A DNA stretch of 64,000 bases from an uncultured Gammaproteobacteria bacterium (GTDB lineage: Bacteria; Patescibacteriota; Patescibacteriia; Magasanikbacterales; UBA922). The DNA is taken from the NCBI GenBank assembly GCA_964522435.1, contig CAZFUL010000001.1, positions 117,075-181,074 of the forward strand, given 5' to 3'. Positions within the stretch are counted from its first letter, which is position 1. Each line of letters starts with the position of its first letter. Under the pieces are notes generated by a model, which saw only the letters and a program-made list of their open reading frames with translations, was not told the origin of the DNA and ran no database searches. The translations under genes and the position numbers were made by a program. Shown piece by piece: positions 4,989 through 60,506 of this stretch.

Positions 4989-5051
4989 GGGGTTCTCTAC
5001 TTTATTAGTCTTTTTTTACTTATTTTAGCAAAATTTAATAATATATATCCC

Positions 5052-5079
5052 AAAAGCCTCTTGACAAAAGGCTTTTTTT
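5052..5079 (+). terminator. Hairpin aaaagcc(11 nt)ggctttt plus T-run after dus
   Basis: Seen in sequence. It overlaps the promoter below. Confidence 0.5.
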
Positions 5080-5089
5080 GTGCTATTAT
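5061..5089 (+). promoter_or_regulatory. Sigma70-like promoter TTGACA-17-TATTAT
   Basis: Perfect -35 TTGACA (5061-5066), 17-nt spacer and -10 TATTAT (5084-5089). It reads into GC-rich islet B and the ORF at 5790. Confidence 0.55.
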
Positions 5090-5255
5090 GTTTCGTTATC
5101 GTCGTATTTCATAACAGCAGCTATTGCCTGTTATTATGAAAACCGACGAGTCGTGTGTTACGACTTACGGTCCAGCGGCATTCCTGCCGCGAGCTGCTAT
5201 AACTGACCCAAGCAGTGTAAATAAATGGGTCCCCGTGGCATGAAGGAGAATACCC

Positions 5256-5516
5256 ATGCCCAATCCCGGTGAAACCCCCAGCACCCCTGCCACCACCTCC
5301 ATGGTGGCGCCCGTCCAGCCGGCCGCCGAGGTGCAGCCGGATCTGGCGTCTGTCGCCCCGGCCGAAGAGCCCCCCACCGTCACGGCGGTGGCCTCTGATA
5401 CCGACGGTAACGGGCTCACCGACCGCGTCGTCATGACCGGGGGGGGGATCATCCCCCTGGGAATCGCGGGAGGGGGGTCCCGTCCCGATCGTCCCCGGAT
5501 GCGCGGTAGCAACTAG
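5256..5516 (+). CDS. Possible small Pro/Ala/Gly-rich protein in a very GC-rich islet (uncertain coding)
   Basis: AAGGAG lies 8 nt upstream of the ATG. The region is over 70% GC and has long ORFs in several frames, so the coding call is weak. Confidence 0.2.
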   Translation: MPNPGETPSTPATTSMVAPVQPAAEVQPDLASVAPAEEPPTVTAVASDTDGNGLTDRVVMTGGGIIPLGIAGGGSRPDRPRMRGSN

Positions 5517-5789
5517 CCCCTCGGCGGGACCTCTTTATATGTACGCGTTCTGCGTATAAAGAGTTCATCTTCTGAACGCAGCACCTGGCCGGTCGCGCTT
5601 TTATAAGCGACCCTGCACAAGCGCTTGACTGTCATCCTCTGACATTCGCGCGACCGGCCCCACAAAAAAGTACATCAATAGTGGTGTGCTTTTTTGTTTT
5701 TATGAGGAATACACTGATATGTAACCAAATTGAATTAAAGGAAAAATAATGATAGTCTAACAAATGAAATTGTATTTAATCGTATTATT

Positions 5790-31702: not shown

Positions 31703-31785
31703 TTATTTATACACAAGACAAGGTTTGACAAACATCTATTTAGGGCGTAGGGTAGAAACATCGTATGAAAAGATACTCAGTAAAT

Positions 31786-31876
31786 AATCATCGTCGTTAC
31801 AGCGACCTCGGATAACTTCCGCTAGGAATTGTTATCATTGAGGTCGCAGCAATCCCGCTATAATCGGGATTTTTTA
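31786..31876 (+). ncRNA. Candidate small structured RNA, unit 1 of a tandem paralogous pair (conserved 5' box, long hairpin, intrinsic terminator)
   Basis: aatcatcgtcgt box, then hairpin gacctcggataac...gttatcattgaggtc, then atcccg-ctataa-tcgggat plus T6. Confidence 0.4.
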
Positions 31877-31916
31877 TTTATTTATGAATAAGTGATATAT
31901 GAATTGTTTTGTGTGT

Positions 31917-32010
31917 AATCATCGTCGTCGCGTGGACCTCCGATAACATTCGTTAGGTATTGTTATCGTTGAGGTCCGCTATATCGCCACATTGGGCGAT
32001 ATTTTTTTTC
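31917..32010 (+). ncRNA. Candidate small structured RNA, unit 2 (structure conserved with sequence changes)
   Basis: aatcatcgtcgt box, then hairpin ggacctccgataac...gttatcgttgaggtcc, then atatcgcc-cacatt-gggcgatat plus T8. Confidence 0.4.
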
Positions 32011-40607: not shown

Positions 40608-40671
40608 TATTGACATTTTTTTCAGGGTGGTCTATACTAAGCCCACGTTATTATATAACAAGTCATATTCT

Positions 40672-40983
40672 ATGTTTGCCGTTATTGAAAGTGGTTCAAA
40701 ACAATACTTAGTTCAAACCGGTGCTCTTCTAAAAATTGAAAAATTAGACGGAGATGTTGGTGCTGAAGTCGTGTTTGATAAAGTGTTACTTCTTGCAAAA
40801 GATGATGGAAGTGATGTTCAAATCGGCACACCCTATCTTGATGGTGTGAGCATTGCTGCAACCGTAGAAGAACAGTCAAGATCAAAAAAGATTCGTGTAG
40901 TCAAATTTAAACGAAAAGTACGCTACAAACGTGTCCATGGACACCGCCAAGCCGTGAGTAAAGTAAGTATCAAAAAAGTATAA
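40672..40983 (+). CDS. rplU: 50S ribosomal protein L21
   Basis: MFAVIESGSKQY N-terminus. 104 aa. Start ATG at 40672. Confidence 0.9.
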   Translation: MFAVIESGSKQYLVQTGALLKIEKLDGDVGAEVVFDKVLLLAKDDGSDVQIGTPYLDGVSIAATVEEQSRSKKIRVVKFKRKVRYKRVHGHRQAVSKVSIKKV

Positions 40984-40987
40984 CGAA

Positions 40988-41024
40988 AAAACCCCCGACT
41001 CAATCGGGGTTTTTTATTTTTCTA
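40988..41024 (+). terminator. Rho-independent terminator after rplU
   Basis: cccccgactcaatcgggg plus T-run. Confidence 0.65.
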
Positions 41025-41039
41025 TATGGTGCTATGATA

Positions 41040-41330
41040 CGGGCAACGTCTGGTGCGGGTGAAGAAACACCCGATTGGATGCGGTTATTGTTTCTTGTTC
41101 CTAACGCTCAAGAAACAATAGGAGAGTCCTTTGACTCTTGAGAGGGGGGGGTAACCTCACTCTCCCGAGTATCAGTGCGCTGCACTGGATCAGACGCCAG
41201 GGGGCTGAATCATAAACAGAGAAACGTTTTTTCCTCACTTCACACGCACAAAACGTACACCCTGCGGGGAATACTGCATGAAGTCAGAAGGAATAACGAT
41301 TCACTGGAGTGGTTCAGCTCCCGCTCCAAT
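41040..41330. other. GC-rich non-coding structured region (islet E) between convergent rplU and recR: candidate ncRNA
   Basis: No convincing ORF. Several stable hairpins (aagaaaca...tgtttctt; ctcaaga...gagtc-cttt-gactc...tgag; cagtgc-gct-gcactg). GC is well above the flanks. Confidence 0.3.
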
Positions 41331-41334
41331 TCCC

Positions 41335-41928
41335 TTATCTTCTGTTTTCAAATGCGCTTTGTAAGGTAATATCATCGGCGTACTGCACGTCAGAGCCCAT
41401 CGGCAGTCCACGGGCAAGGCGAGTTACCTTTATCTGGGGTGAACCCTGTTTTATTTTTCCACTAATATATATCATCGTGCTTTCTCCTTGCATGTCAGGA
41501 TTTAAGGCAAGGATAACTTCTCTTATTGTTTCTTTTTGTAAACGATCAAACAATTCAGGCAGTTTTAATTGCGCTTGTTGTTGTTCATCTGTGGTATCAA
41601 TGGTACCGCGTAATATATGGTAGAGACCTCTATAGGCCTTTGTTTTTTCAATAGCTTCTCGATCTTGGGGAGTAGCAACGACGCAGAGTATATCTTGCCC
41701 TCTGGTTTGATCACGGCATACCTCGCAAGGGGAGCTGTCTGAAAAGGTATAACAGCGTTCACAACTTTTAATCGTGTCCATGACTTGCTTTAAAGCAACT
41801 AACAGTTCTCCTACATCTTTTTTCCCTCTATGAAGGAGTGAAAAAACAAAACGCTCTGCTGTACGAGGACCAACTCCAGGCAGGCGTTTGAGTGCTTGGA
41901 TGAGTTGTCGGATTGGTTGAGCGTACAT
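41335..41928 (-). CDS. recR: Recombination protein RecR
   Basis: LIQALKRLPGVGPRTAERF HhH, a C4 zinc finger (CERC...CEVC) and a Toprim. ATG at 41928 is preferred over the GTG at 42003. Confidence 0.85.
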   Translation of the reverse strand: MYAQPIRQLIQALKRLPGVGPRTAERFVFSLLHRGKKDVGELLVALKQVMDTIKSCERCYTFSDSSPCEVCRDQTRGQDILCVVATPQDREAIEKTKAYRGLYHILRGTIDTTDEQQQAQLKLPELFDRLQKETIREVILALNPDMQGESTMIYISGKIKQGSPQIKVTRLARGLPMGSDVQYADDITLQSAFENRR

Positions 41929-43798: not shown

Positions 43799-44032
43799 AT
43801 CGATGGAGAGGATGCTAAATAGTAGAGCTATGATATCCTAGAGCCGATTCTTTTTCAACAGGTCTTTGGTTAAACTCTGTTAAGAAGAGTGTGCAAAAGC
43901 TGTGGATTAATAGGTAATTATCACTTCTCAGCATACAAGCACGAAAGCAACTCGCTTCGGGTGCCAAGATGCACCCTGCGCTGCGACTGCTTTCTTTGCT
44001 TATATGCTGTAGAAGGATATTCGTGATACCGA

Positions 44033-44061
44033 TTGAAAAAAATACCGAACTCTTCTATACT
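44033..44061 (+). promoter_or_regulatory. Sigma70-like promoter TTGAAA-17-TATACT; the GT4 ATG is only 8 nt after the -10 (near-leaderless)
   Basis: Seen in sequence. Confidence 0.5.
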
Positions 44062-44069
44062 CGCTGCAT

Positions 44070-49463: not shown

Positions 49464-49564
49464 CGTAGCGACCCTCCATTTGTGAAGACTCAAAGGCAAG
49501 CGCGAGTATAAACGCTTCCAATCCCCATCCTAAAATTATTTTGAAAAAAAGTAGTTTGAGGATA

Positions 49565-49598
49565 AAAAATCACCGTTAAAACGGTGGTTTTTTATTTC
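49565..49598 (+). terminator. Bidirectional rho-independent terminator (caccgtt-aaaa-cggtg flanked by A- and T-runs)
   Basis: Seen in sequence. Confidence 0.6.
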
Positions 49599-49632
49599 TG
49601 TGACCCCGGTGGGGAATCTCACTGCTCGTGAC
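49599..49632 (-). pseudogene. Degenerate partial copy of the tRNA-Lys 3' end (variable loop, T-arm, acceptor 3' strand)
   Basis: tgtgaccccggtggggaatctcactgctcgtgacca versus the intact gtgaccccggtggggatcgaacccacgacca. About 30 nt of homology with a 7-nt insertion and substitutions. Confidence 0.45.
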
Positions 49633-49787
49633 CAGCTAAAGCGCTGGTCACTGCGCTTTGAGAAACCTTCGGGTTTCTCAATACTCATCCTCCGCAAGTA
49701 AGGGGGCGCTGCCCCCTTACCATCCCCCAATTCGATCCCCCTCGACCCAAAAATAAAACCCCCACATAAGTGGAGGTTTTATTTTAG

Positions 49788-49860
49788 TGACCCCGGTGGG
49801 GATCGAACCCACGACCATTGGCTTAAAAGGCCACTGCTCTACCGGCTGAGCTACAGGGTC
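49788..49860 (-). tRNA. tRNA-Lys (anticodon UUU); CCA not encoded
   Basis: Manual cloverleaf: acceptor GACCCTG/CGGGGTC, D-arm GCTC-AGCCGGTA-GAGC, anticodon loop CTTTTAA, T-arm GTGGG-TTCGATC-CCCAC. Confidence 0.85.
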
Positions 49861-60318: not shown

Positions 60319-60335
60319 TGCCTGAGTCAGTAAGG

Positions 60336-60392
60336 GACGTCATTGAGACCTAGCTCGATGTATCGAGAGCACGCTCAATGACGTTTTTTATT
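60336..60392 (+). terminator. Composite terminator: long stem gacgtcattgag...ctcaatgacgt with inner hairpin, then T6
   Basis: Seen in sequence. Confidence 0.55.
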
Positions 60393-60506
60393 TATGCGTG
60401 TTTCTCTCTGGTTGAGATATTGACTTTTTGTTCTTATTCCTATATACTCGAGGCTCTTGAATGCCTCTTTGAGATGGCTTCCTTTATTTGTTATTAATTT
60501 GTCTGT

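Follow-up and report, generated by a model that had tools for sequence, protein, structure and literature searches.

The question raised by this locus is what occupies the long space between rplU (plus strand, 40672-40983) and recR (minus strand, 41335-41928), two convergent genes whose stop codons (at 40983 and 41335) lie 351 nt apart in a 64,000-nt stretch of DNA (hereafter the window, in whose numbering all positions are given). The RecR of the window belongs with the Patescibacteria (CPR), close to Magasanikbacteria. A sequence-only reading had described positions 41040-41330 as a non-coding islet with no credible ORF over about 290 bp, several stable local hairpins and a G+C content clearly above that of both flanks, and had proposed a structured RNA whose identity was left open, to be checked by an Infernal/Rfam scan and by a comparative alignment with related genomes.

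The islet does sit between the two convergent genes, and on average it is indeed richer in G+C (50.9% for 41040-41330) than rplU (38.1%), recR (42.9%) and the window as a whole (40.5%). Only 4% of the 291-nt windows in the 64 kb are equally G+C-rich, and the rplU/recR gap has the highest G+C content among the intergenic gaps longer than 120 nt. Nevertheless, the excess is moderate rather than striking, since single 100-nt coding stretches nearby reach 54-57% G+C, and the word "clearly" applies to the averages only. The claim that no credible ORF is present holds: the ORFs in the gap are at most 64 aa long, and none is kept in the two homologous copies described below, where the frames shift or the start codons are missing. 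A small protein gene, which together with an intron-interrupted tRNA gene (considered further on) we regard as scarcely credible, would have to be read from these short ORFs, which lie in different frames or have no start codon in the other copies.

The closest RecR relatives that we found are those of loci L001 (73% identity) and L002 (65%), whose rplU/recR gaps measure 375 and 396 nt, and among the relatives examined only these two carry homologues of the element at the same junction. The conservation in related genomes on which the sequence-only reading had made its candidate depend thus takes the form of two syntenic copies. The RecR proteins of the three carriers form a clade, with 65-73% mutual identity and at most 65% identity to all others. 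At the DNA level the three gaps have only short blocks in common; a covariance model built from the rod of the window alone (R1; the rod is described below) nevertheless recovers the syntenic copies of L002 (36.6 bits, E 2e-7) and L001 (34 bits, E 1e-6) and, elsewhere in the 233 kb of fetched loci, nothing more than the reverse strand of the window copy.

The convergent arrangement of rplU and recR is kept across the group and the intervening content varies. In L004, L006, L025 and L028 the gap is short (25-61 nt), with a terminator only; in L026 and L027 it measures 130 nt, also without the element; in L003, L005, L007, L030, L073 and the P0086 locus it holds unrelated ORFs or genes. Across Magasanikbacteria, this junction behaves as a hot spot for insertions: some genomes have an empty gap (25-61 nt), others unrelated inserts, such as a Methyltransf_21 gene with a small ORF, or ORFs of 156, 159, 183 and 456 aa (the 156-aa called "gene" at the L003 junction looks non-coding, being of low complexity and belonging to no family). 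Since sister lineages do without the element, it is dispensable for the group.

Searches beyond the three carriers were negative within their respective scopes. A three-sequence covariance model (R3) gave no further match in 573 kb, nor in L003 and L073 with the filters off; additional relatives reached through L21, RecR and DUF192 neighbours are all without the element; and a RecR scan of the genome collection returned four loci, none of which carries it. A metagenome scan with the three-copy pattern gave 17 loci, all of them due to chance (GxGxxG motifs read in antisense, for instance) and none recognized by the models, and a viral scan gave 41 loci, none matched by the covariance models. 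Proteins identical to the RecR and L21 of the window are not on record, and the contig of the same organism in Logan (L072) ends inside rplU, short of the element, and so offers no second assembly of it. In the collection scans a locus had to match exactly a pattern taken from the three copies, a procedure that may be of low sensitivity, and the true range of the element may be wider than one clade.

Read on the rplU strand, the three copies have one layout in common: a TATNNT box, a multi-hairpin domain closed by a helix that we call P1 (domain 1), a YYAGG linker, a long rod (domain 2) and a C-rich tail. The parts of the window copy, together with the neighbouring terminator, are as follows.

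40986-41015, both strands: bidirectional intrinsic terminator of rplU (AAAAAACCCCCGACUCAAUCGGGGUUUUUU), with an equivalent after rplU in L001 and L002
41030-41038, plus strand: putative extended -10 element (TG-n-TATGAT), with the counterparts TATTGT in L001 and TATACT in L002
41047-41054, plus strand: 5' strand of P1 (CGUCUGGU), which closes domain 1
41056-41073, plus strand: hairpin Ha (CGGGUG-AAGAAA-CACCCG), with a hairpin at the same place in L001 (GGGGUGAAU/AUUCCCC) and in L002 (GCUGCGG/CCGCGGC)
41085-41120, 41122-41139 and 41140-41164, plus strand: hairpins Hb, Hc and Hd, variable in number and sequence among the three copies
41173-41187, plus strand: hairpin He (CAGUGC-GCU-GCACUG), always directly 5' of the 3' strand of P1
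41189-41196, plus strand: 3' strand of P1 (AUCAGACG)
41197-41201, plus strand: conserved YYAGG linker, with the sequence UUAGG in L001 and CCAGG in the other two copies, the last two G of which (41200-41201) belong to the rod base
41200-41322, plus strand: rod, with about 36 conserved pairs in the covariance-model alignment of the three copies
41200-41212 with 41310-41322, plus strand: G+C-rich base of the rod
41227-41242, plus strand: conserved U-rich block of the rod (UUUUUUCCUCACUUCA), opposite a purine block (UGAAGUCAGAAGGAA) at 41279-41293
41243-41278, plus strand: variable apex of the rod, with 21-39 nt unaligned in the three copies
41321-41334, plus strand: conserved C-rich 3' tail (CCGCUCCAAUUCCC; consensus CCGCNCCAAYYCC), unpaired in the minimum free energy (MFE) structure, its last base directly preceding the recR stop codon

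The evidence for a maintained fold comes mainly from the comparison of the three copies. MAFFT alignments made from sequence alone give no consistent structure for domain 1 or for the central part of the rod, and for this reason model-based alignments and a hand-made table were used instead. In the rod, which contains small bulges only, 95.3% of the pair cells of the model-based three-copy alignment form standard pairs (32-51% with slid partners), 15 of the 36 pairs carry two-sided changes (one to three with slid partners) and these values are attained by 0 of 500 shuffles; the counts are supportive and do not amount to a formal test, because the alignment was fitted to the structure, which inflates pairing, and because there are only three sequences. 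The changes are readily seen at the base of the rod, where GGGGCUG...CAGCUCC of the window is replaced by GGGAAGU/ACUUCCC in L002 and by GGAGAG/CUCUCC in L001.

Domain 1 is poorly conserved (a model of the window's domain 1, R2, detects L001 at an E-value of 0.009 only and misses L002), and the elements that delimit it are kept. When the predicted start is used, P1 is the closing helix of the unconstrained MFE structure of each copy; in the hand table all five shared pairs of P1 are maintained in the three copies, four of them with two-sided changes. Hairpin He has 17 of its 18 cells paired, with two-sided changes in four of six pairs across the three copies. Between the window and L001, twelve pairs of domain 1 show two-sided changes, and Hd aligns with seven two-sided changes; Hb of the window has no aligned counterpart in L001, and the L002 copy contains additional hairpins and an additional enclosing helix.

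The comparative alignment proposed by the sequence-only reading yields two-sided compensatory changes in the rod, P1 and He, in three sequences of one small clade. Since the sequence has diverged to short blocks and the helices have been kept by two-sided changes, we conclude that selection acts on the RNA fold. The alignments show homologous elements at one junction in three genomes, with a common, predicted two-domain fold maintained by compensatory substitutions.

This bears directly on the idea that a mobile or accessory element (a miniature transposon, a piece of an intron or the end of an island) once inserted here and is now in decay and functionless, an idea to which the variability of the junction across Magasanikbacteria and the absence of the element from sister lineages do lend some weight. 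A remnant in decay would not be expected to have compensated helices, nor to be kept at the same site in carriers whose RecR proteins are only 65-73% identical. Additionally, blastn reveals no transposon-type terminal inverted repeats beyond the hairpins themselves, the element is a single copy in the window (blastn and covariance models), and there is no similarity to the ORFs inserted at the junction of relatives (which also speaks against a pseudogene of one of these) and no match in phage and plasmid records (blastn) or among the viral loci. A repetitive palindromic element or miniature transposon, which would be marked by many copies per genome and by terminal inverted repeats with a target duplication, was rejected on the same grounds, and we consider decay a quite unlikely explanation.

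The predicted stability of the folded element agrees with the comparative evidence, as does the orientation in which it is found. The plus strand has an MFE of -124.7 kcal/mol, with a z-score of -7.0 (-4.8 for the minus strand), and our own shuffles of the element give plus-strand z-scores from -5.6 to -6.9, so that the several stable local hairpins noticed by eye do correspond to folding far better than that of shuffled sequences. Fifteen control windows of 315 nt have z-scores between -3.6 and +1.8; the observation is real, because the element lies outside this range and because of its G+C excess. By copy, the z-scores in the plus orientation and on the opposite strand are -5.6 and -4.2 for the window, -5.9 and -1.1 for L001, and -4.1 and -1.3 for L002. 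In the rod alignment of the three copies there are ten G:U cells and no A:C cells, the latter being what G:U pairs of the opposite strand would look like. G:U pairs are thus tolerated and A:C never seen, which argues that the selected molecule is an RNA read in the rplU direction, towards recR (plus strand).

A promoter for such an RNA can be proposed. The TATNNT box lies exactly 8 nt upstream of P1 in three of three copies, a distance that places the 5' end in P1, and from it we infer that the RNA would start near A41045/A41046, from its own sigma-70-type promoter. The -35 element is weak in the window and in L002, with a TTGCAA found 17 nt upstream in L001, and in the window the expected -35 position is occupied by the T-run of the 40986-41015 terminator. 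Promoters of the sigma-70 type do operate here, since rplU has TTGACA-17-TATACT at 40610-40638. Alternatively, the TATNNT block could form a helix, in which 41035-41040 would pair with 41167-41172 in a pseudoknot that can be drawn in the window and L001 and is unclear in L002. As a side observation, rplU stands alone in the window, with its own promoter and terminator and no rpmA after it (in most bacteria rpmA follows rplU), and neither the ATG of rplU nor recR is preceded by a Shine-Dalgarno sequence.

No terminator belonging to the element itself was found, either from the tail towards recR or from recR towards the element. A T-run 110 nt into recR was considered as a terminator of the RNA and rejected, being the antisense of conserved Lys codons and equally present in genomes without the element. 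On the opposite strand, there is a weak terminator-like site at 41138-41123; otherwise recR has no terminator before 41015, and the bidirectional terminator at 40986-41015 is probably also the only one available to recR transcripts. Because recR would run to this shared terminator, the (ybaB-)recR mRNA would carry the full complement of the element as its 3' UTR.

These terminators are the basis for a different explanation, in which the islet is no gene at all and consists of a cluster of transcript-end hairpins, acting in the recR 3' UTR, as a back-up terminator or as a block to exonucleases on read-through transcripts, with no promoter of its own. The position between convergent genes and beside a shared bidirectional terminator, the near-perfect hairpins, the lack of a terminator of the element's own and the existence of other dense hairpin clusters with terminators in the window (for example, at 49464-49786) all fit this explanation, as does the fact that recR transcripts lacking the element would end directly behind the gene, in the way they would in the relatives with gaps of 25-61 nt. 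However, the strand evidence points to the plus strand, downstream of the strong rplU terminator, and not to the recR strand, and a generic block would not be expected to show P1, a fixed order of parts, a conserved unpaired linker and tail, and a TATNNT box at a fixed distance. The element is also single-copy. We consider this explanation unlikely, although it has more in its favour than decay.

If the element is an RNA gene, the known families have to be weighed as candidates. The Infernal/Rfam scan returned no family match in any of the three copies: with Rfam 15 at gathering thresholds the whole 64 kb contains only three tRNAs, each of the three copies at E-values up to 10 gives only terminator-like and long-hairpin (miRNA-like) noise, and seven related loci give nothing beyond tRNAs, terminator look-alikes and hairpin noise. 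ARAGORN finds neither a tmRNA (standard or permuted) nor a tRNA in the element. The absence of RNase P, SRP and tmRNA motifs noticed in the sequence-only reading is therefore borne out by both tools.

In this lineage, standard tools are known to miss RNA genes. RNase P RNA was visible only at thresholds far under the noise cutoff in 10 of 35 complete CPR genomes (PMC8172020), and intron-containing genes for tRNA-Asn/Asp of Patescibacteria have been missed by annotation tools (PMC13011429). For this reason both ideas were also examined by eye.

RNase P RNA was rejected. Its P4 helix is formed by the CR-I strand (GGAAAGUCC) and the CR-V strand (ACAGAA...GGCUUA), and the window does contain a segment, AGGAGAGUCC, that differs by one base from the P4 motif AGGAAAGUCC. 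This segment is the 5' arm of the local hairpin Hc and has no conserved equivalent in the other two copies, and inspection of the element by eye revealed no CR-V strand. The AGAGA strings of the element lie in the rod, paired with its 3' strand; P1 encloses 41047-41196 only, so that the rod and tail fall outside it, and the 5' and 3' ends of the element do not pair with each other. RF00010 and RF00011 give no match in the three copies at E-values up to 10, which covers scores above about 10 bits.

The remaining universal RNAs were discarded on similar grounds. The helix 8 of SRP RNA has a GNRA tetraloop apex with symmetric and asymmetric loops (AGCA and AGG), and the rod apex, where these motifs should sit, is the most variable part of the element; no Rfam SRP match was obtained. 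A tmRNA combines a tRNA-like domain (5'/3' acceptor pairing, T-arm and CCA) with a tag reading frame; ARAGORN and Rfam are blank, and GGGGCUG...CAGCUCC is the covarying base of the rod. 6S RNA consists of one rod, about 180 nt long, whose closing and terminal stems flank a large central bubble. The element is comparable with it in being stable, largely double-stranded and little conserved in sequence, a type of bacterial RNA often missed outside well-studied phyla, but its rod has no large central bubble, an additional branched domain of 150 nt is present and Rfam gives no 6S match.

The closest resemblance in topology is to the large (Bacillus-type) SRP RNA, of about 270-300 nt, in which a helix-closed 5' hairpin domain is likewise followed by a long irregular hairpin and a short unpaired tail; in B. 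subtilis the SRP RNA gene adjoins dnaX-ybaB-recR. The element differs in having no helix-8 motif, in the low conservation of its apex, in the four to six hairpins of its 5' domain (two in the SRP RNA) and in its absence from this site in sister genomes.

A diverged universal RNA (RNase P, SRP, tmRNA or 6S) that the standard models miss thus draws on this topology and neighbourhood, on the P4-like segment, on the fact that Rfam finds none of these RNAs elsewhere in the 64-kb window, and on the reported CPR RNase P RNAs that escape normal thresholds. It would, however, be expected to match the three-copy pattern in more than three organisms and to be present at this site in the sister genomes, and no RNase P, SRP, tmRNA, 6S or intron model matches any of the three copies at E-values up to 10. 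With ends that do not pair with each other, the variable apex and the lack of conservation of AGGAGAGUCC, we hold this explanation to be very unlikely.

Less probable still is a tRNA gene split by a group I intron, with tRNA halves on either side of an intron that has the P3-P9 core. This reading would rely on a kind of gene common in Patescibacteria, has a precedent in the missed tRNA genes mentioned above and finds an echo in the 3' part of the element, where GGUUCAGCUCCCGCUCCA recalls a T-loop and an acceptor end with CCA. This T-loop-like segment is, however, the 3' strand of the rod base, which covaries with its 5' strand and differs in L001 and L002. Neither ARAGORN nor Rfam (E up to 10) gives a tRNA or group I signal, and by eye no halves of an acceptor stem, D-arm or anticodon arm can be placed at the ends.

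The element is more readily compared with the orphan structured ncRNA candidates described in those long intergenic regions (IGRs) of AT-rich bacteria that are rich in GC by the GC-IGR approach (PMC6429828, PMC8632094, PMC11109978), with which it shares a long intergenic region of high G+C content, the absence of an ORF, a compensated fold, a narrow phylogenetic range and the absence of an assigned function. It differs from them in matching no published motif in Rfam 15 and in having only three representatives, from a CPR lineage, which is fewer than those studies usually require. As no Rfam entry resembles it, the element can be called a new family; by its kind, it is one of the many orphan structured RNAs from GC-rich intergenic regions. 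Taking together the syntenic copies, the two-sided changes and the lack of any Rfam match in the three copies, we conclude that the earlier proposal of a structured ncRNA with identity left open is supported, and that the element is probably a stand-alone structured ncRNA gene of about 290 nt, on the plus strand at about 41045-41334, specific to a small Magasanikbacteria-like clade of the CPR.

What such an RNA might do is a more speculative matter. One possible role, which we put forward only tentatively, is that of a structured cis-antisense regulator of the (ybaB-)recR transcript. In this mechanism, the element would be transcribed from its own TATNNT promoter towards recR, without a terminator of its own, while the (ybaB-)recR mRNA would carry its exact complement as 3' UTR; the stable hairpins and the free C-rich tail would start the pairing with the recR 3' UTR, and, combined with the effect of convergent transcription, the resulting duplex would adjust how stable or how abundant the recR-operon mRNA is. 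Pairing initiated by hairpins or tails is used by plasmid and toxin antisense systems, and the element has in common with plasmid copy-control and Sok-type antisense RNAs its position opposite the transcript of another gene, the full complementarity, and the combination of stable stem-loops with a free segment. Those RNAs are, however, 60-110 nt long and lie over a 5' leader or a coding start, whereas the element is about 290 nt long and would cover the 3' UTR only, with no toxin or replication gene beside it.

The tail is of particular interest in this respect. Its only long complement in the 64-kb window is the recR 3' UTR itself, no other target having been found in the 64 kb. Within the RNA, the only recurrent pairing partner of the tail is the 3' strand of the rod, with which it can form an alternative hairpin. 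In the window this joins 41305-41312 (UGGAGUGG) to 41321-41328 (CCGCUCCA); L002 has UGGCGC/GCGCCA, and the L001 hairpin is weaker. Since this hairpin excludes the base of the rod, it may act as a conformational switch. A pairing of the tail with the 5' strand of Ha was rejected, as it shows no compensatory change.

It is not obvious why antisense regulation should require an RNA as long as 290 nt and conserved in its fold, and a role in trans, exerted through a protein or through G-rich targets bound by the tail, is about equally possible. A bolder version, to which we give little credence, sees in the element the first representative of a new CPR class of large structured RNAs, whose conserved fold would serve a job beyond antisense pairing. 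If this were true, the RNA might form part of a ribonucleoprotein or, in these reduced genomes, take over or assist a housekeeping RNA function in a lineage-specific manner, and the other dense hairpin islets of the window might belong with it to a set of CPR RNAs that has so far stayed hidden.

Several other stretches of the window are structured or unusual. The strongest fold signal lies on the minus strand at 49464-49786 (323 nt, 46% G+C), directly downstream of tRNA-Lys (49787-49860), with z-scores of about -9.8 and -9.4 with our own shuffles and -7.2 with the tool. In minus-strand order it consists of a terminator, a domain closed by GGGGGAUC/GAUUCCCC with three near-perfect hairpins, and a second terminator; it has no Rfam match and no similarity to the rplU/recR element, and it looks like another candidate for a small structured RNA gene. 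On the plus strand, 31703-31978 contains two direct copies, of about 60 nt, of a hairpin unit (AAUCAUCGUCGU...GACCUCnGAUAAC...GUUAUC...GAGGUC) with a terminator-like hairpin between them (z-score of -7.0 with our own shuffles and -4.8 with the tool). Strong minus-strand folds are also found at 43799-44069 (z-score of -6.1), 60319-60506 (-6.1) and 4989-5164 (-5.7), all of them intergenic and none with an Rfam match at gathering thresholds; part of their fold signal will be due to terminators. Finally, positions 5250-5520 reach 70-75% G+C in a genome of 40% G+C and hold a plus-strand ORF of about 86 aa (ATG at 5256, stop near 5516), rich in Pro, Ala and Gly, with AAGGAGAA upstream, for which the ORF list gives instead a minus-strand ORF of 115 aa (5165-5512); this segment looks foreign, or could be an assembly chimera.

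At present, the rplU/recR element, known from three copies, adds to the list of orphan structured RNAs, which makes it a useful lead and no surprise. Nevertheless, since the genomes of CPR/Patescibacteria are small and tightly packed, a 300-nt non-coding insert under structural selection likely earns its keep. The Patescibacteria are an uncultured group that makes up a large share of bacterial diversity and, to our knowledge, almost nothing is known about their regulatory RNAs. If it is expressed, the element would be among the few concrete candidates for RNA-based regulation in the CPR, and its position would link an RNA to the DNA-repair and replication operon dnaB-ybaB-recR.
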